A stretch of DNA of 51,561 bases from a virus (taxonomy: Duplodnaviria; Caudoviricetes), in the IMG/VR virus record IMGVR_UViG_3300037245_001095, positions 1 to 51,561 of that record. One strand, given 5' to 3'. The position numbers and the translations under genes were made by a program. The notes under the pieces are model-generated. The model saw only the letters and a program-made list of their open reading frames with translations, ran no database searches and was not told where the DNA came from. Shown here one piece after another: positions 4,780 through 49,460 of this stretch (position 1 is its first letter; every line of letters begins with the position of its first letter).

Positions 4780-5148
4780 ATGGGAACTTTAGTTAAGTAC
4801 TGTGAAACTTGTAATAAACAATTTATGCCTTATCGACCATTTCAAAAATATCATAGTGATAAATGTAGACTTATTGCTCATGAAAAAGAATATCGATATG
4901 TAAGAAAACCAGACGTCACGAGACAATGCAGACAATGTGGTACGGAATTTGTAACAAATAATAAGAAGAAGGTATTTCATAATACAAAATGTCAAAAGGA
5001 ATATCAAATTGAAAATCGAAATAATCTGGAACCTGATGAAAGAACTTGTGCATACTGTGGTGATAAGTTCGAGACAACCCATCATGCCAAAAAATATTGT
5101 CACACAGACTGTTATGATGAAGCCAAGAAAGAGAGGGAAAAGAAATGA
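4780..5148 (+). CDS. triple zinc-finger protein (CxxC...C/HxxxC repeats)
   Basis: Three units: CETC..HSDKC, CRQC..HNTKC, CAYC..CHTDC; GGAGG RBS. Confidence 0.7.
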   Translation: MGTLVKYCETCNKQFMPYRPFQKYHSDKCRLIAHEKEYRYVRKPDVTRQCRQCGTEFVTNNKKKVFHNTKCQKEYQIENRNNLEPDERTCAYCGDKFETTHHAKKYCHTDCYDEAKKEREKK

Positions 5149-5536: not shown

Positions 5537-5757
5537 TGGAAGATATAAAAGAAGTAATGAAGGCTGGTGTATCTATTTTAATGGATACTATATTAAATCT
5601 TTTACAAAAAGATCCACATGGGTGGAGTGAAAGAGGTTGTTCTACTTGTCAAGCCATATCAAGTATTTCTGGAAGACCTTTTGGTTGTAGTTTATACAGA
5701 TTACAACGAGAAACTCAAAGAAAAAGAGAAGCAGAGAAGGACAAAAACAATGTATGA
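5536..5757 (+). CDS. hypothetical protein (small, Cys-containing)
   Basis: TAATG-coupled ORF; H..CSTC..C. Confidence 0.6.
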   Translation: MEDIKEVMKAGVSILMDTILNLLQKDPHGWSERGCSTCQAISSISGRPFGCSLYRLQRETQRKREAEKDKNNV

Positions 5758-7702
5758 GAAAATGGGTAATATAATATCTCTTGATACAGAGACAAAAGAC
5801 CCGCTATTGACAAATAAGAAGAAGTCATTGCCAAGTGGCCCGGGAGTCTTTAGAAGTACTCCACATGACTATCGTAATGAACATGGTTATCTTCTTGGTG
5901 TATCAATGGGTGATGAACATGGCAATAAATGCTATCTCAATTTAGGACATTACGAAGCAACAAAAGAATTAAGGGATGTCAATGTCAAATATTTAAAAGA
6001 AACCTTGGCACAGGCTGACACGATCATTGGCCAGAATCTGCTATATGATCTTGATTGGTTAGAGAATTGGTTAGGCATTAAGGTCAATGGTACCTTGATT
6101 GATGTTGGTGTTGCTGAAGCTCTGCTTGATGAAAATCAAGGTAAATACAACCTTGACTTCATGGGCATCAAGTATTTTGGTGAAGGCGAAGGCAAAGCAA
6201 AAGATAAAATACAGCAATTTTGTGACGATAATAATCTTAAAGGCGATGTTCGTAAATGGTTATGGAAAATGCCACATTATCTTGTTGAAGAATATGCTAT
6301 AAGAGATATTGAGCTTCCTATGAATATCTGGAAGATACAGGAACCTCTTCTTGAGGCAGAAGATCTAATGCCATTGATGAATCTTGAATGTGATCTATTA
6401 AGAGTACTACTTGTAATGCGAAAGAATGGTGTCAGAATTGATGAAGCCTTACGTAAATCAGCAGCTGATGAACTATATAGTTTAGTTAAAGAGAAACAAA
6501 CTTGGATAGACAAAGAAGTTGGTTTTCCAGTTAAATTCAGAAGTTCTAAACATCTTGCTTTTATATTTGACGAAAATAATATGCCTTATCCGATGACAGA
6601 CCCATCTAAAACTTATCCTTATGGTCAACCATCAGTACCACGTGACCATTTATTAAGATTAGCAAAAGGTCAATTAACTGGTTTTGATGCTGAAAAGATT
6701 ACTGACCCAAGACTATTAGAGATTGGACAATGTTTAGCAGACTTAAAAAGAGCTGATAAAGTTGTGAGTTCATTTGTTGATGGTAGTCTATTAAGATTTC
6801 AAACAGAAGGTAACTTAATTCATTGTAGTTTCTATCCAATGCGAACAGATGAATATGGCACGAGGTCTGGAAGATTTTCAAGTGCGAATCCAAACCTACA
6901 GCAAATACCATCAACTACTGTTGATATGTACTATGGCACATTAACACGTCGGCCATTTGTACCACTTGAAGATCATCTATGGCTTAAACTTGATTATTCA
7001 CAAATTGAATATCGATTCATGGCCCACTTTGCACGTGGCCAGGGAGCAGATGCTGTTAGAGAACAATATAATTTTAATCCAAGAACTGACTATCATAAAA
7101 TGATTGAAGATTTAACAGGATTGAAAAGAAGGTATGCAAAGAATTTAAATTTTGGTGTGGCATATGGGATGGGAGCAAAACATATGGCTGAGTTCTTTCA
7201 ATGGGATTTAGATTATTGTTATGATATACTTCGTATATATCATGCTAATGCACCATTTATTAAGAGTACAATTAAGGCGGTTGAACGAAGAGTGAAAGAT
7301 AAAGGTTATATCAGAACCTTCTTAAAAAGACGGTCACGTCTGATTGATAAGAATAAGGCTTATACAATGTTTTGTCGTTTGACACAAGGTTCAGCCGCAG
7401 ACCTTATGAAGAAAGGTATGTATGAAGTTTACAAAGCTGGAATATTTAATACACTCATACCAAGTTTAACTGTACATGATGAAATTGATTGTTCAATGCC
7501 AATCACAAAAGAAGGTATGGAAGCTGCACGTGAGGCTAAACATATCATGGAAACATGTATTGAATTAAAAGTACCAATCATTGCAGATATGGAGATTGGC
7601 AAAAATTGGGCCAAGTTAACTGCAGTTGATAAAGAATGGATTGGCTTAACAAAAGCCGAAGAAATGGCAGACTTTGAAAAGAAAGTAAAGGAGATTGCAT
7701 AA
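5750..7702 (+). CDS. polA: DNA polymerase family A with 3'-5' exonuclease domain
   Basis: ExoI LDTET, ExoII NLLYDL, ExoIII YAIRD; GTRSGRFSSANPNLQQIP; motif A DYSQIEYR; motif B RYAKNLNFGVAYG; motif C TVHDE. Start moved to ATG 5750. Confidence 0.96.
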   Translation: MYEKMGNIISLDTETKDPLLTNKKKSLPSGPGVFRSTPHDYRNEHGYLLGVSMGDEHGNKCYLNLGHYEATKELRDVNVKYLKETLAQADTIIGQNLLYDLDWLENWLGIKVNGTLIDVGVAEALLDENQGKYNLDFMGIKYFGEGEGKAKDKIQQFCDDNNLKGDVRKWLWKMPHYLVEEYAIRDIELPMNIWKIQEPLLEAEDLMPLMNLECDLLRVLLVMRKNGVRIDEALRKSAADELYSLVKEKQTWIDKEVGFPVKFRSSKHLAFIFDENNMPYPMTDPSKTYPYGQPSVPRDHLLRLAKGQLTGFDAEKITDPRLLEIGQCLADLKRADKVVSSFVDGSLLRFQTEGNLIHCSFYPMRTDEYGTRSGRFSSANPNLQQIPSTTVDMYYGTLTRRPFVPLEDHLWLKLDYSQIEYRFMAHFARGQGADAVREQYNFNPRTDYHKMIEDLTGLKRRYAKNLNFGVAYGMGAKHMAEFFQWDLDYCYDILRIYHANAPFIKSTIKAVERRVKDKGYIRTFLKRRSRLIDKNKAYTMFCRLTQGSAADLMKKGMYEVYKAGIFNTLIPSLTVHDEIDCSMPITKEGMEAAREAKHIMETCIELKVPIIADMEIGKNWAKLTAVDKEWIGLTKAEEMADFEKKVKEIA

Positions 7703-43351: not shown

Positions 43352-43744
43352 ATGAAAAAGATTTTAAGTTTGGCATTATTGGTATTAGTAATTATGTTGT
43401 TTGCTAGCTGTAGTTTGATAGAAACTACTGATGCAGATGTCGCATCCTACAATTTATCTAAAGATGCTGACATGTTCAGGATCAATCGAAGAGTTGTATT
43501 CTATAATGGGATTACTGATGCATATATCTTGTCTATAGAGGGAAGAAGTTCTGTAGAGTTCTTTCCTGATAAGTTTGTTGTTACTGTTAAAACAGGCCCT
43601 AATGAATACAAGAAGCATTACCTTGGTAGAGCTGATAATGTTTTCCCTTTTGTTGAACAGCTTGATGCCGTACCTGTTGATGTATATCATTATAAAGTAA
43701 TCTTTAAGCCTTCAGTAATTATACCAGATATAGAAATTAAATGA
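43352..43744 (+). CDS. phage lipoprotein
   Basis: Signal peptide with LFAS-C lipobox; ADVASYNLSKDAD...RRVVFYNGITD motif, which I recall from other phage lipoproteins. Confidence 0.8.
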   Translation: MKKILSLALLVLVIMLFASCSLIETTDADVASYNLSKDADMFRINRRVVFYNGITDAYILSIEGRSSVEFFPDKFVVTVKTGPNEYKKHYLGRADNVFPFVEQLDAVPVDVYHYKVIFKPSVIIPDIEIK

Positions 43745-43762: not shown

Positions 43763-44089
43763 ATGAAAAGAGCTCGCTTACTAATGCTGTTGCTGATAGC
43801 ATTGCTGGTAGCTCTACCAGTGGCAGCAGGCACATTAAATGTGTCTAACAACCTATTGATGGTTGAACCAATTGAAACCAAGATTGCACTTGAGGAGGTA
43901 TCTATCAATTATAATGTAGCTAATGAAGCATTAGTTACTTCAGTTGCTGATATTACATTGTGGCCAGCAATAGTAATTATAATGATGATAACAATGGTAT
44001 TATTTACCGGTTTTATCAATATGATAAAAGATCGGAACAAATACAAAAACATGGGAGGAGTCCCGATGTATTCGTCGGGGCATACTTGA
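43763..44089 (+). CDS. membrane protein (signal peptide and one TM helix)
   Basis: AAGGAGG RBS; PVAA-G cleavage site; WPAIVIIMMITMVLFTGFI TM segment. Confidence 0.65.
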   Translation: MKRARLLMLLLIALLVALPVAAGTLNVSNNLLMVEPIETKIALEEVSINYNVANEALVTSVADITLWPAIVIIMMITMVLFTGFINMIKDRNKYKNMGGVPMYSSGHT

Positions 44090-44164
44090 GTACCTAATCC
44101 CATGATAAATGAAAATCGGACATAATAAGATCGGCGGATTGATCATCTGCCGATCATTTAACAA

Positions 44165-44313
44165 GTGACAGTGGCGTAATTGGTAAACGCACTCAGACGT
44201 GAGGTTAAGTAATGCGGAAAGTAATAAACTGCTTTCAGAAATGGGATAATAGTAAACCATCGCCGAAAGGTTAGTAGCATTGTTCTATGCAGGTTCGAGT
44301 CCTGTCTGTCGCA
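44165..44313 (+). ncRNA. tRNA-like RNA with a 98-nt structured insert replacing the anticodon/variable arms
   Basis: Acceptor GTGACAG/CTGTCGC; D arm GCGT-AATTGGTAA-ACGC; T arm GCAGG-TTCGAGT-CCTGT. Confidence 0.75.
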
Positions 44314-44440
44314 TATTAAGGGTATGCGTATGCATTACTACTTAATAAAAATCTGGTATCCCTGAATCAGATCAATAGCAACCAACTTGAGTGGCTTAGA
44401 CCGGTACTGCAGGGAGTACCAATTTTATGGAGGTAGAGAA

Positions 44441-44917
44441 ATGGAAGAAGAAAGGAAATCAGGATTTGATCAGTTAGGAACAATAGATGATGAACCTGTT
44501 GCACTTGAGATTAAAACCGCAGTTACAGAAGACATTGGAAATGTTATTCATGATGCTATTGATGACAAGCTTAAAGATATGGAAGTTGGCAAACCTTTAG
44601 GCAAGAAACCTGAGAAGAGAAAACCAATCAAATTAAACCATGAGTTATCAACTGAATTACGATGCAAAAGATGTAACACTTACTTTGATTCAATGATAAA
44701 CATTAAATGGGATAGTGGTTATAAAGGCCGATCATATTGTCCTAAATGTGGTTTTGGTATGAAGGTTGTAAGAACAATGCCAACACGAGAATTGAAAAGA
44801 CGACCTAATGGTACTGTCATATCTGATAAGAAGCCAAAGCGAAAAGGCTTAACAAAGAAAGAACGTTGTGCTATTCGTAAGCGGGAGGCTAAGAATGAAT
44901 ATAGTAACGAATCCTGA
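44441..44917 (+). CDS. zinc-ribbon protein with basic C-terminus
   Basis: Start moved to 44441 (conserved motif); CKRC...CPKC. Confidence 0.7.
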   Translation: MEEERKSGFDQLGTIDDEPVALEIKTAVTEDIGNVIHDAIDDKLKDMEVGKPLGKKPEKRKPIKLNHELSTELRCKRCNTYFDSMINIKWDSGYKGRSYCPKCGFGMKVVRTMPTRELKRRPNGTVISDKKPKRKGLTKKERCAIRKREAKNEYSNES

Positions 44918-45128
44918 TAATGATTTTGTATGCCTTATCTGTGGAACCGATAATAAAGAACCCGTAACATTGATTCCAATAAAGGGCACAGAAAAAGGAA
45001 ATATTATGGAAGCTGAAGTAATACATATTAAGTGTATTGACTTAACTTTATTCAAAGGTGATGATAGGTTCATGGGTCTACAACAGACCTTTTATACAAA
45101 GGAGTCAGAAGATGAAGTTTCTAAGTGA
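44895..45128 (+). CDS. hypothetical zinc-binding protein
   Basis: GGGAGG RBS; CLIC...HIKC. Confidence 0.65.
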   Translation: MNIVTNPDNDFVCLICGTDNKEPVTLIPIKGTEKGNIMEAEVIHIKCIDLTLFKGDDRFMGLQQTFYTKESEDEVSK

Positions 45129-45321
45129 TGAAGAATATTATCAGCCAGCAACTGAAGATATGTTAATGGCAGAAGAAGACTTCTATGATTATCTTGATGA
45201 TGACGATGAATCATATGATGATGACTTTGACGATGTTCAACTTGAAAATGAAGATGATGAAGACGTCTATCAATATGAAGGTGACTTTGATCTTGAGGAG
45301 TTTTTCGATGACGATGATTAA
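45112..45321 (+). CDS. extremely acidic 69-aa protein
   Basis: AAGGAG RBS; 34 of 69 residues are D/E. Confidence 0.7.
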   Translation: MKFLSDEEYYQPATEDMLMAEEDFYDYLDDDDESYDDDFDDVQLENEDDEDVYQYEGDFDLEEFFDDDD

Positions 45322-45520
45322 ATATGCCCAGAAGGTTGCGTTATATGGCAAACAACTCGCTGAACAAATGGAACCTGATATTCAAAGAACAATACTTGAG
45401 ATAAAGATTACTGCTGTGTATAAAGCAATTAAAGACGACAATTTTAAAGCAATACACAAACAAACAACAGAATTACGAGCAATCATTGGTGTATCTAAAA
45501 GAAGAATGGAAGGAAAATGA
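45308..45520 (+). CDS. hypothetical protein
   Basis: GAGGAG RBS upstream of ATG 45308. Confidence 0.6.
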   Translation: MTMIKYAQKVALYGKQLAEQMEPDIQRTILEIKITAVYKAIKDDNFKAIHKQTTELRAIIGVSKRRMEGK

Positions 45521-45521
45521 A

Positions 45522-46292
45522 ATGACTCCAGCTGAAAAGTTCTTTAACGATAATAAATTGACACCAGAACAGAGACAAGTTATGAAGACATTTGAATTGC
45601 ATAAGAAGTATGGAATGGAAGCCCAGAGAATGGACGAAATATTTGGCTCAGTGAGCGGAAGGTTTAATAGTCAGAAACCAAACTTTACTGTTGAACCAAA
45701 GAGTGCATTTGAGCCTAATGATGAAACTTTTAGAGAGCGTTACTCAGGTAAGTTTGATCTTGCTGACATGGAAGCCAGAATCTTTGCACAAATGTCTGCT
45801 ACAGAAAAAGATAGACTTGGTACTTTAAAAGATGAATACTTCAATGATACAGTTCATAGTGCATCTGCACAGACTTGTGCAGAAAATGATGATCATATGA
45901 AGCATAAAGACATAAGAGACTTTTTACATCATTATAGTAACGGACCAAGTACATTTGGTGAAGTTATATACGGACATAAACAGCCATCACCAAAGTTTGC
46001 AGAAGGTGGCAAATTACATATGTCAATGAGTGGCAGAATACACACTAATGAGCCTATTATAAGACCAATAAGAGTAGTCAACCCATTAGGATTAACTCAT
46101 GGTTGCCCATTCTGTGGCACGTGGGATGAAGAGGAGGAACAAGCAATATTAGAAACATTAAATGATGCTAAGACAGCTATAGTAAATTGGAATGTAGTCT
46201 GTAGTTGTGGGGCAATGGGACCTGATGCTGATTCAAGAGAAGAAGCTATCAGTCGATGGAACAATATAGAAGAGGTACGAGATGGAAAGTAA
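45522..46292 (+). CDS. PolA-motif mosaic fused to a Lar-family (restriction alleviation) zinc finger
   Basis: C-terminal CPFCG...VVCSCGAMGP...EEAISRWN; N-terminal PolA-like motifs (see findings). Confidence 0.75.
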   Translation: MTPAEKFFNDNKLTPEQRQVMKTFELHKKYGMEAQRMDEIFGSVSGRFNSQKPNFTVEPKSAFEPNDETFRERYSGKFDLADMEARIFAQMSATEKDRLGTLKDEYFNDTVHSASAQTCAENDDHMKHKDIRDFLHHYSNGPSTFGEVIYGHKQPSPKFAEGGKLHMSMSGRIHTNEPIIRPIRVVNPLGLTHGCPFCGTWDEEEEQAILETLNDAKTAIVNWNVVCSCGAMGPDADSREEAISRWNNIEEVRDGK

Positions 46293-47439
46293 AGAAGAGA
46301 AAATTGTATTAACAATTAGTAGTGAGTATCTGGGGCACTGGACAGTTTATGATGCTTTAAGAGAGCTGTATCAGAATGCTTTTGATAGGGCTAATGAAGA
46401 TAAAGATGCAAAATGGTATCATCAATTTGATAGAGAATCATCAAGGTCTAAAAAGATGTCGTGGACTATTGGAAATGTAGAAACGACACTTGAACGCAGG
46501 ACACTGGTTCTGGGTGAAACATCAAAGAGAGATGTATCATCTGCAATTGGTAAGTTTGGTGAAGGTTACAAGTTGGCAATACTTGTACTGGTAAGAAATA
46601 ATATTGATGTGCATATTGTAACACAAAAAGAAGTATGGGCATTTAGTCTTGAGTATAATGAACAATTCAAAACTAAAATGTTGACTGTAATAATCACACC
46701 AAATGAATTCAGCAGGGCAAATGATATTGAGTTCAGATTAACAAATGTACCAGTTGGTATCTATAATGGCTATACACAACGTAATTTAAAGTTGCAGAAA
46801 AGTTTAAAATATCAAGAGACTGAGCAATGTCAAGTATTACTTGATAAAAGAAACTGTGGTAAGATATTTGTTGGTAGCTTATTTGTTTGTGATTATCCTG
46901 GTACAGCAACTTATGGCTATAATTTTAGACCTAATGTTTTCCAACTTGGTAGAGATCGTAATATTGTTGATGGCTTTCATGCAAATTATGCAGCATCAGC
47001 TGCAGTTATAAATGCAGCAGTTGATAATGTTGAGATACAGACTAAGATACTTGATAATCTTGATAAAGATGATACTAAATATATTGCGAATTATTCTGCA
47101 GCAGTTGATGCACTTGGTAAAGTATTATGGGAACAGTTCATTGGAACCAATCCTAATAGTATTCCATACTATTACAATCATAAACAAGATGAACTCAAAA
47201 GAAAGTATGTTGGTATACGTACTGTATATATTGAAGAAAGAGTATATGACATTTTGATAAAAACTAAAATGTACAAAGAAGCATTGGCTACTCATGAGCA
47301 AAAAGATCCTCCACCAAGACCTGAGACTGTGGTTAATGAATTTTATGATACTCATTATAAAGAGATGCCTGATAAAGTAAGAGAGGCATACACAAAAGAT
47401 ATCATGCTACCTGCAATGAATTGGCAATTGGAGGATTGA
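46282..47439 (+). CDS. GHKL-type ATPase domain protein (MPN635-N-like)
   Basis: ALRELYQNAFD, LGETSK and IGKFGEGYK boxes. Confidence 0.8.
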   Translation: MESKEEKIVLTISSEYLGHWTVYDALRELYQNAFDRANEDKDAKWYHQFDRESSRSKKMSWTIGNVETTLERRTLVLGETSKRDVSSAIGKFGEGYKLAILVLVRNNIDVHIVTQKEVWAFSLEYNEQFKTKMLTVIITPNEFSRANDIEFRLTNVPVGIYNGYTQRNLKLQKSLKYQETEQCQVLLDKRNCGKIFVGSLFVCDYPGTATYGYNFRPNVFQLGRDRNIVDGFHANYAASAAVINAAVDNVEIQTKILDNLDKDDTKYIANYSAAVDALGKVLWEQFIGTNPNSIPYYYNHKQDELKRKYVGIRTVYIEERVYDILIKTKMYKEALATHEQKDPPPRPETVVNEFYDTHYKEMPDKVREAYTKDIMLPAMNWQLED

Positions 47440-47525
47440 TGTTTATATTTTGGTTCGTATTAATTGGTCTTGGCCTATCATTATTGATAGGCATAAGAGC
47501 ACATAATAAAGATAAAGAGGAGTGA
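47439..47525 (+). CDS. 28-aa membrane peptide (not in the ORF track)
   Basis: GGAGG RBS, TGATG overlap; MFIFWFVLIGLGLSLLIGIRAHNKDKEE. Confidence 0.5.
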   Translation: MFIFWFVLIGLGLSLLIGIRAHNKDKEE

Positions 47526-49183
47526 AGATGGATTTTAAAACAAAACCATATGCACATCAATTAGAGGCTTTTGAGAAGTTCAAAGATAAAGAGTTCTTTG
47601 CTCTGTTCATGGATATGGGCACGGGGAAAACAAAAGTTGCTATTGATATTGCAGCACATAAGTATGAGAAAGGTGAGATAGATGCAATGTTAATAATTGC
47701 ACCTAATCATGTGCATACACAATGGATTACTGAACAGTTCATTCTACATTGTCCCGTGCCATACAAGGCTTTTATATGGAAATCAAGTAAACGTGGCACA
47801 CATGGTTATCAATATCAGATGGATAACTTTCTCACGCCAAAGATAGATAAATTAAAAGTCTTTACAGTGAATGTAGAAGCCTTTCAATCAGATACTATAA
47901 TACCAACTATAAGAACTTATGTTAAGCATAATAAAGTATTTACAGTAGTTGATGAATCAACAAGGATTAAGAATCCAAAAGCAAAGAGAACCAAAACGAT
48001 TCATAAACTTGAGAAGTATGGCCAACGTTGTATATTAACAGGGACACCAGCAACAAAATCTCCATTTGGTTTGTGGTCAATGTTTGAGTTCTTAAAAAAA
48101 GGATTTTTTGAATGTAATTATTTCATCTTTCAGGCCCGTCATGGTGTCATGATGAACGGTATCAATCAAAGGACCGGAGGACGATACAGAACCCTTATAG
48201 ATGAAAAGACATGGCATATTGTATTATCACAATTGAAAGAGATACAAGAAATAAGAAATGGTCCTTTAATGTCTGATGACTACTTGGCAGTTGCAGAAGG
48301 AATGGGAGTCTCTGAAAAGAATGTGAGGTTTATTGAGTATCAAAAAGAATTTAAAAAATATAAACGTCTTGATGAAATAAAAGAGAAGATCAGTGCAGTC
48401 ACATTCTATGCTCGTAAAGAAGATTGTCTTGATTTACCAGATAAAGTCTATCAACCAACTTTTGTTGAAATGCATAAAGATCATAGAAAGATTTATAATA
48501 ATTTAAAGAAAACTATGCTCGCTGAATATGCTGGTGAAGAATTGACTGTAACAAACAAGGCTGCATTAACTACAAGACTAATGCAAGTTTGTGGTGGATA
48601 CTTTCCATATACTGAAGAAGTTGATGTAAGTATTGGCGATCAAGTTCGGACCGTAGTAAAGGTCAAGGCAAAGCAGATTGGTTTAAAGAATCAGAAAATT
48701 GAGCGTATAAAAGAAGAGCTTGAAGAATTGAGCTCATTTCCAGTAATTATATGGGCAAGATTTGTTGTTGAATTACAAGCAATATATGCTGCATTGAAGA
48801 AGGATTATAAATGCTGTTTATATTATGGTAAGACTCCAGCACATGAAAGAGCTGATATCATTGAAGATTTTAAAGCTGGTGATTATGATATCTTTATTGG
48901 TAATCCTGCAGTAGCCGGTTTTGGTTTGAATCTACAAAATGCAACAACTCAATTATTTTATTCTAATAGTTATGATGTTGAAGCAAGATTACAAGCTGAA
49001 GATCGATCACATAGACTTGGTGTAAAAGATACTTGTTTATATAAGGATTTTGCATATAAGAATACAATTGATGAAAGAATAGCACGAGCTATTCTGAGTG
49101 GTAAAGCAATGAATGACTTCTTTAGACAGCCATTAGAAGCATTGCTTGATGATGAAGAAAAGGAGGTTAAAGATAATGGATAA
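47522..49183 (+). CDS. SNF2-family (SF2) helicase
   Basis: MDMGTGKT, VDEST.IKN, LTGTP, GLNLQ, QAEDRSHRLG. Confidence 0.93.
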   Translation: MKMDFKTKPYAHQLEAFEKFKDKEFFALFMDMGTGKTKVAIDIAAHKYEKGEIDAMLIIAPNHVHTQWITEQFILHCPVPYKAFIWKSSKRGTHGYQYQMDNFLTPKIDKLKVFTVNVEAFQSDTIIPTIRTYVKHNKVFTVVDESTRIKNPKAKRTKTIHKLEKYGQRCILTGTPATKSPFGLWSMFEFLKKGFFECNYFIFQARHGVMMNGINQRTGGRYRTLIDEKTWHIVLSQLKEIQEIRNGPLMSDDYLAVAEGMGVSEKNVRFIEYQKEFKKYKRLDEIKEKISAVTFYARKEDCLDLPDKVYQPTFVEMHKDHRKIYNNLKKTMLAEYAGEELTVTNKAALTTRLMQVCGGYFPYTEEVDVSIGDQVRTVVKVKAKQIGLKNQKIERIKEELEELSSFPVIIWARFVVELQAIYAALKKDYKCCLYYGKTPAHERADIIEDFKAGDYDIFIGNPAVAGFGLNLQNATTQLFYSNSYDVEARLQAEDRSHRLGVKDTCLYKDFAYKNTIDERIARAILSGKAMNDFFRQPLEALLDDEEKEVKDNG

Positions 49184-49460
49184 GTTAATTGTGACAAGAC
49201 ATACTGCACTTGTGGCTTATTTAATTGAAAAAGGTTATGTAGATAAAGACACTCCACATATTGCACATGCAGATGTTGAGGATGTAAAAGGTAAGCATGT
49301 CTATGGAATCTTACCAAATTGGTTGGCATGTCATGCTGACAAATTTACAGAGGTACAATTAAGATTGCCAGTTGATAAAAGGGGTGCTGAACTATCATTA
49401 AAAGATGTAAAATTTTATATTGTAGAACCAAAAACATATACCATAAGGAGAGTAATATGA
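49176..49460 (+). CDS. csx16: Csx16-like protein (candidate cyclic oligoadenylate ring nuclease)
   Basis: VTRHxAL...H...HVYGILPxWLA...LPxxxRGxELS matches the Csx16 pattern (SRHxGA...VxGxLPxxLA...LPxxxRGxELS); AAGGAGG RBS. Confidence 0.8.
   Translation: MDKLIVTRHTALVAYLIEKGYVDKDTPHIAHADVEDVKGKHVYGILPNWLACHADKFTEVQLRLPVDKRGAELSLKDVKFYIVEPKTYTIRRVI

Follow-up and report, generated by a model that had tools for sequence, protein, structure and literature searches.

The prototype of the Lar family is Lar of the Escherichia coli Rac prophage, which is, to our knowledge, the only member for which restriction alleviation has been tested. In family A DNA polymerases (PolA), the conserved motifs B, 2 and A line a buried active site. 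Phages quickly delete DNA that is useless to them. Phages and conjugative elements also encode polyvalent anti-defence proteins, multidomain products in which several conflict-related modules are carried on one polypeptide (PMC5512222). Here, we describe a 256-aa open reading frame (ORF) of a tailed phage in which a Lar-type zinc ribbon is preceded by a short stretch that resembles the PolA of the same phage, with its motifs in permuted order. An initial annotation, made from the letters alone, had read the N-terminal part as a mosaic of six shuffled and duplicated polymerase motifs. Comparison with shuffled sequences, with the other reading frames of the phage and its relatives and with large protein collections reduces this mosaic to a single rearrangement, and allows the possible origins and roles of the fusion to be weighed.

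Genome setting and layout of the ORF

The window, that is, the whole stretch of DNA analysed, is a virus record of 51,561 bp that is complete (CheckV completeness 100%) and has a GC content of 33.6%. The record occurs in a single sequencing run, a marine sediment metagenome (DNA) that is probably the source sample; no RNA run is listed as carrying the stretch, and within the sole DNA run carrying it, which is kept as contigs, there are no variants in the ORF stretch. A 4,248-bp contig assembled independently from the same run matches positions 44000–47316 with 0 differences, which counts against an assembly chimera, though the same reads underlie both. PHROG scans identify the window as that of a tailed phage, in which the structural genes (terminase, tape measure) lie on the minus strand as one block. 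The early/replication block is on the plus strand and wraps round the record ends, with genes for SNF2 helicase (47522–49183), primase (236–1843), helicase, ThyX, MazG, HNH, PolA and SSB. A 130-aa protein encoded at 43352–43744 (+) matches Pfam Phage_VG64 (E = 5.3e-46) and phrog_478 (recombination directionality factor), and the PHROG scans of the window ORFs of at least 100 aa, together with two shorter ones, revealed no integrase.

The ORF is real, intact and tightly packed among the early/replication genes (Table 1). The TGA of the upstream ORF (45518–45520) stops 1 nt ahead of its ATG, and the start of the downstream gene, at 46282, overlaps its end by 11 nt, the SNF2 helicase gene coming next. 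Among 20,000 mononucleotide shuffles of the ORF none was free of stops, indicating that the reading frame has been maintained. The initial annotation had the coordinates and the intact frame right, and every string that it quoted is found, both in the ORF (CPFCG at residues 195–199, CSCGAMGP at 227–234 and EAISRWN at 241–247) and in the PolA of the phage. An in-frame ATG (M167) could serve as an internal start, giving a 90-aa, Lar-only product. A full-length AF2 model built from the single sequence was unusable (pLDDT 34.6). The third-position GC content (GC3) is 0.348 for codons 1–92 (45522–45797), compared with 0.190 for codons 93–192, 0.262 for the Lar part and 0.252 for polA; set against the 0.19–0.26 of the remaining ORF and its neighbours, the value of 0.35 for codons 1–92 is a weak hint of a separate history, resting as it does on 92 codons.

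Table 1 Features of the ORF and its comparison partner in the window
Feature	Position	Strand	Details
Shine–Dalgarno-like box	45508..45515	+	GGAAGGAA; 6 nt before the ATG; read from sequence
Whole ORF, 256 aa	45522..46292	+	ATG at 45522, TAA at 46290–46292; stop included
Motif B (O helix)-like segment, residues 14–38	45561..45635	+	R18-x3-K22-x7-Y30-G31-M32; matches own PolA 499–524
Motif 2 then motif A, residues 39–92	45636..45797	+	SGRFNSQKPN, then KFDLADMEARIFA; colinear with own PolA 411–472
Orphan linker, residues 93–192	45798..46097	+	Without detectable relative or significant PolA similarity
In-frame ATG (M167)	46020..46022	+	GAAGGTGG box at 46002–46009, 10 nt upstream; read from sequence
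Lar-family zinc ribbon, residues 194–248	46101..46265	+	C195/C198, C227/C229, G233, A242, W246
Own complete family A DNA polymerase (PolA)	5618..7702	+	PF00476, 163.9 bits; comparison partner, outside the ORF

Several of the surrounding genes have features of their own. Two small upstream ORFs (44387–44917 and 44868–45128, +) contain CxxC pairs (CKRCN...CPKCG and CLICG...HIKC), and their sole domain match is a weak one to Zn_ribbon_8 (E = 0.0072); with these two, the early region is rich in zinc-ribbon-like proteins. Two genes upstream of the Lar fusion, an 87-aa ORF (45058–45321, +) is extremely Asp/Glu-rich over its C-terminal two-thirds, has DDDD runs and ends in FFDDDD, a makeup reminiscent of anti-restriction proteins that mimic DNA; searches of Pfam, PHROG and NCBIfam gave no match to it. 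The overlapping downstream gene (46282–47439, +) encodes a 385-aa protein with a match to phrog_6077 (E = 4.7e-64); its ELYQNAFDR box is of the type that characterizes GHKL ATPases. This protein has no Pfam match, and its homologues in phage records are labelled ‘histidine kinase-like ATPase’ and, in one case, ‘RIIA lysis inhibitor’. Within the replication block, a 104-aa ORF (49146–49460, +) matches Pfam Cas_VVA1548 (‘putative CRISPR-associated protein’) above the cut-off (E = 1.6e-15). The HNH endonuclease gene (4780–5148, +; phrog_1271, E = 2.6e-10) lies roughly 470 bp upstream of polA and is possibly a homing element; no link between it and the PolA fragment was shown.

Resemblance of the N-terminal region to family A polymerases

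A profile of the polymerase clade of this phage (clade HMM), built from 60 of the 120 PolA relatives listed, matched the ORF at 9.2 bits as one domain covering residues 35–89, a score that none of 5,000 shuffles attained (maximum 5.7). Of the 297 stop-to-stop frames that the window contains at a length of at least 50 aa, polA (935 bits) was the only one to outscore the ORF, the next frame reaching 5.9 bits; among the 652 frames of seven related-phage loci, five polA genes scored 879–1029 bits and the other 647 frames at most 4.0. BLASTP against the own PolA of the phage aligned residues 36–92 colinearly with PolA 409–472, the stretch from motif 2 to motif A (E = 0.001), and residues 13–41 with PolA 499–527, which holds motif B (E = 0.03). 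Similarly, hhalign against the PolA alignment placed residues 39–92 on 411–472 (P = 2.3e-4, probability 44%). High-scoring segment pairs (HSPs) were obtained with 120 of 121 PolAs by BLASTP, and 186 of the 192 HSP midpoints fall at ORF residues 20–79, the range of the two supported segments. When eight related loci were searched by tblastn, the motif 2–A part of the polA gene was matched in all five polA-bearing loci (E 0.024–0.34), the remaining rows being four weaker strays (E 1.7–9.3). The top Pfam family for residues 1–192 was DNA_pol_A (E = 0.058, in two stretches; E = 0.16 for residues 6–39), at 11.4–12.8 bits compared with a cut-off of 34.3. Searches by phmmer with the ORF recovered no PolA, either from the PDB (E ≤ 10) or from 1.84 billion representatives (E ≤ 0.001), and no DNA-level similarity of the ORF to polA was found.

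The order of the matched segments differs from that in the polymerase. In PolA, motif 2 is followed by motif A and then motif B; in the ORF, motif B stands directly before motifs 2 and A. Profiles in which PolA alignment columns 499–524 were joined to columns 411–431 or 411–472 gave 31.6 bits for residues 1–60 as one domain, a score reached by 0 of 3,000 shuffles (maximum 9.5), and aligned residues 14–64 ungapped at 26.6 bits, the best shuffle scoring no higher than 10.2. When 949 real frames were scored on the permuted profile, the ORF was surpassed by the six polA genes alone and the next frames reached 5.5–7.6 bits; none of the 943 non-polA frames exceeded 10.2 bits. As the junction was picked after the HSP ends were known, the nominal E of 3.7e-10 is optimistic; the 20-bit excess of the permuted profile survives any plausible correction. 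A second B-to-2 junction, at residues 120–192, was unsupported (264 of 3,000 shuffles were as good). The data support one rearrangement only, which appears to have set PolA 499–524 directly before PolA 411–472. The earlier reading was sound in that PolA-like motifs stand out of native order and are fused to a Lar domain; the mosaic of six shuffled, duplicated motifs gives way to this single rearrangement.

The individual motifs were assessed with ungapped position-specific scoring matrices (PSSMs), counting the shuffles whose best match equals or beats that of the ORF. Of the six PolA motifs originally proposed, motif B, motif 2 and motif A held up, and DTVHSASA, FLHHYSNGP and MSGRIHTNEPII did not. 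Motif 2 (GSVSGRFNSQKPNF, residues 42–55) was equalled by 0 of 5,000 shuffles. Motif A (DLADMEARIFAQMS, residues 79–92; 307 of 5,000) and motif B (RQVMKTFELHKKYGM, residues 18–32; 255 of 5,000) each occupy the best position in the ORF, motif A with the correct spacing; relative to the own PolA, roughly 8 residues are deleted between motif 2 and motif A. With the whole PolA profile, no shuffle out of 3,000 matched the score of residues 39–92. Residues 1–38 land on motif B, for which 11 of 3,000 shuffles were as good with the whole profile and 9 of 3,000 with a motif B sub-profile. By PSSM, HMM and shuffle controls, neither the proposed D-x-H helix nor the proposed second copies of motifs B and 2 exceed chance level: DTVHSASA (residues 109–116) and FLHHYSNGP (134–142) lie outside the four best positions for their PolA motifs, MSMSGRIHTNEPII, the supposed second motif 2, was equalled by 1,837 of 5,000 shuffles, and MSGRIHTNEPII (residues 169–180) is likewise no better than chance. 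Nor did the motifs prove to be duplicated, the likeness between residues 1–92 and 93–192 being equalled by 156 of 2,000 shuffles.

Residues 93–192 as a whole do not rise above chance in comparison with PolA. With the whole PolA profile, 507 of 3,000 shuffles were as good; the corresponding counts were 1,555 of 3,000 for residues 93–160 against PolA 473–530 and 1,449 of 3,000 for residues 93–192 against PolA 473–560, and for the mean score of residues 93–192 over 60 PolA segments they were 143 of 400 (local) and 328 of 400 (global). A BLAST alignment to one PolA (P0047) spans ORF residues 41–186 and would extend the colinear match to residue 186; it was rejected, as neither the HMM nor the Smith–Waterman and global controls supported it. 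Taking DDH, FGEVIYG and HTNEPII from this alignment as equivalents of the D-x-H, motif B and YHxxAP elements was likewise rejected on negative controls. IHTNEPIIR, a post hoc choice, was equalled against the YHxxAP block by 47 of 5,000 shuffles.

Residues 14–92, and those residues only, are thus homologous to the family A polymerase domain. The motif C region was unmatched in every PolA search (clade HMM, hhalign and BLASTP), and the thumb, the exonuclease domain and the remaining fingers were unmatched in the PolA searches as well. In family A polymerases, motifs A, B and C are colinear within the palm–fingers–thumb; in the ORF, motif B precedes motifs 2 and A. A protein with only about 80 PolA-like residues, in permuted order and with no match to motif C, thumb or exonuclease, cannot be a polymerase, as had been anticipated, and the phage has a complete PolA of its own.

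A Lar-type zinc ribbon at the C terminus

The C-terminal part of the ORF matched three models of the Lar family, each with a significant E value. The matches to TIGR03655 (anti_R_Lar; E = 2.1e-8, 34.4 bits) and Pfam PF14354 (Lar_restr_allev; E = 3.1e-4, 21.3 bits) fall short of the curated cut-offs of 39.6 and 28.6 bits, respectively, and phrog_599 (‘Lar-like restriction alleviation protein’) was matched at E = 6.8e-7. Because the scores fall below both curated cut-offs, we class this part as a Lar-type ribbon in the broad sense, not as a curated family member. An exhaustive phmmer search of 1.84 billion representatives (E ≤ 0.001) returned 37 proteins, one of which is the gene itself. The 36 others are mostly 60–75 aa long, and the stretch that they match lies solely within residues 176–255. 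In an alignment of 36 sequences, comprising the ORF piece and 35 relatives, C195, P196, C198, C227, C229, G233 and A242 are invariant and W246 is conserved in at least 90%; PF14354 was matched by 33 of the 36 aligned sequences at E ≤ 0.01. The Lar signature (CPFCG...CxCGAxGP...EAIxxWN) and two cysteine pairs over roughly 55 aa are present, and the domain first noticed as CPFCG..CSCGA.GP..EAI.RWN is confirmed by Pfam, PHROG, TIGR03655, the alignment and the phmmer relatives.

An AF2 model of the Lar domain, built with its alignment, had a mean pLDDT of 81.4. Its best matches in BFVD, a collection of predicted viral structures, carry Lar-family names at a probability of around 1.0 and TM scores of 0.5–0.7, with E values of only 0.018 or above, the domain being so short. 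The PDB held no match to the domain, either by fold at E ≤ 0.001 or by sequence. Alternatively, the ribbon could be a generic DNA- or protein-binding zinc ribbon in a replication or regulatory accessory protein that has no part in anti-restriction and may be co-translated with the GHKL-like ATPase. The scores under the curated Lar cut-offs and the overlap with the ATPase gene, next to that of the SNF2 helicase, are compatible with such a role, and no solved structure defines the mechanism of the Lar family. We nevertheless consider this reading unlikely, given that CPFCG...CSCGA.GP...EAI..WN is the signature of the Lar family itself, that PF14354 recognizes most of the aligned relatives and that the top structural matches in BFVD are Lar-family proteins.

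Distribution, origin and possible roles

The N-terminal part has no detectable relatives. None was found by tblastn in 50,697 phage records, by a word-indexed search of 5.8 billion proteins (bar the identical self cluster), by exhaustive phmmer of the 1.84 billion representatives (bar self), in the ESM Atlas or in scans of viral and metagenome contigs, and a PHROGs search returned only weak rows of unknown function. The nearest phages fetched share 55% identity in the helicase and 49–63% in PolA. Neither the ORF nor any Lar match occurs in the fetched related phages (0 of 2, 0 of 5 and 0 of 4 records), no close viral locus was reached through the phrog_6077 neighbour, and in one related locus (L004) other small ORFs, unrelated to this one, stand before the gene for the GHKL-like ATPase homologue. 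With no N-terminal relative in the databases and none in the fetched phages, the gene is a lineage-specific singleton.

We favour, at a little better than even confidence, the reading that a captured and rearranged polA relic is fused upstream of a Lar-type anti-restriction module. The gene product would be a two-part, lineage-specific early protein. Its C-terminal 55 residues would form the functional module, which, going by the family name, probably acts on a host restriction–modification enzyme, and its N-terminal 190 residues would be an orphan extension. On this reading, residues 14–92 descend from a gene for a family A DNA polymerase belonging to the clade of this phage, a rearrangement having put the motif B segment (PolA 499–524) directly ahead of the motif 2–motif A segment (PolA 411–472). 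A tandem duplication of PolA 411–524 would yield exactly the 524|411 junction, and we infer that the fragment arose in this manner. The absence of DNA-level similarity to polA implies that the event is old or that the donor had diverged. The polymerase fragment may be a passenger, kept open mainly because ribosomes have to cross it on the way to the Lar domain; it cannot take the native palm/fingers topology, and we regard it as something other than a purpose-built motif display. The rapid loss of useless DNA from phages counts against the relic reading, since an open frame persists over the 570 bp that precede the Lar domain.

The pattern of residues kept in the fragment bears on whether it has been under selection. 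Of the 51 aligned columns, 26 are at least 90% conserved in PolAs; the ORF agrees with 13 of these and with 4 of the 25 others (Fisher P = 0.017). Among the matches at conserved columns are, in the O helix, R18, K22, G31 and M32 and, in motif 2, SGR and PN; Y30 (in the ungapped alignment) and D79, E84 and R86 (in BLASTP) are identical to the own PolA and lie outside the list of conserved columns. From the Klenow and Taq structures, we take the kept O-helix, motif 2 and motif A residues to be nucleotide- and primer-contacting. This bias towards conserved columns could reflect selection on the fragment; descent from a diverged PolA donor fits equally, as it is chiefly at such columns that one PolA agrees with another.

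A rival reading makes the protein a functional polymerase mimic, with a working surface formed by the O-helix, motif 2 and motif A residues and with the Lar ribbon acting as another anti-defence module. Such a mimic could be a decoy for a host polymerase sensor, or a dominant-negative replisome partner, or it could bind dNTPs, nucleotide signals or primer ends. The preferential retention of conserved PolA columns is in keeping with this, as are the frame that has stayed open and the early, probably host-interaction genes on either side, namely the acidic 87-aa ORF upstream and the overlapping GHKL/rIIA-like ATPase gene downstream. However, a supported segment of about 80 residues in permuted order cannot reproduce the native polymerase surface, and in real polymerases the three motifs line the buried active site and not an exposed face. 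There is also no homologue, no confident structure and no known sensor, and a full-text literature search, which was not exhaustive, turned up neither a polymerase-motif decoy nor a fusion of a PolA fragment to Lar. We therefore hold the mimic to be improbable, and a decoy or dominant-negative function of the ORF is purely conjectural. A longer shot still is that a mini-module has been selected in which R/K/Y of the O helix, SGR/PN of motif 2 and D/E/R of motif A serve to bind a primer end, a nucleotide or an immune signal derived from nucleotides, or else to imitate a polymerase epitope, so that together with Lar they would make a two-headed anti-defence protein.

The remaining possibility, that the likeness to PolA arose by chance and that an unrelated orphan sequence makes up the N-terminal region, agrees with the failure of phmmer to find PolA, with the marginal Pfam E values and hhalign probability and with the counts for motifs A and B taken alone, but it is largely refuted, and in our judgement very improbable, since the ORF score was reached by no shuffle and no real non-polA frame, two non-overlapping segments match the same family, the permuted profile stands far above both kinds of control and tblastn selects the polA gene in every polA-bearing related locus.

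If the relic reading is right, the ORF offers a clean, datable case of the birth of a phage orphan sequence, in which a piece of an enzyme underwent duplication and permutation and became joined to a small anti-restriction module, as well as a warning against reading design into motif-level likeness. A functional fragment would instead represent a new route to counter-defence proteins, starting from the catalytic-site motifs of the replication enzyme of the phage itself. Under either reading the immediate impact is modest, the gene being a singleton of an uncultured phage from marine sediment.

Compared with known systems, the ORF shares with the Lar family (PF14354, TIGR03655 and phrog_599) the four-cysteine ribbon and the CPFCG / C-S-CGA-GP / EAI-x-WN signature in its C-terminal 55 residues. 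In contrast to the members of that family, which mostly stand alone at 60–75 aa, it adds a 190-aa N-terminal extension and scores below the cut-offs, and its Lar activity is putative. With family A polymerases (PF00476) it has in common, within residues 14–92, R-x3-K-x7-YGM, SGRFxSxxPN and KxDxxxxExRxxA, the best fit being to the profile of its own clade; unlike them, it is permuted, retains only about 80 residues and has no similarity to polA in DNA, and it is a derivative of the family, not a member. Polyvalent proteins provide the concept of conflict-related modules fused in one polypeptide of a mobile element, whereas the ORF has one recognized anti-defence domain (Lar), and neither Lar nor a PolA-fragment architecture was met among the polyvalent proteins in the available parts of PMC5512222. 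The combination of Lar with a rearranged PolA fragment is new as a variant of architecture, and we see in it an isolated curiosity and not an established polymerase decoy.
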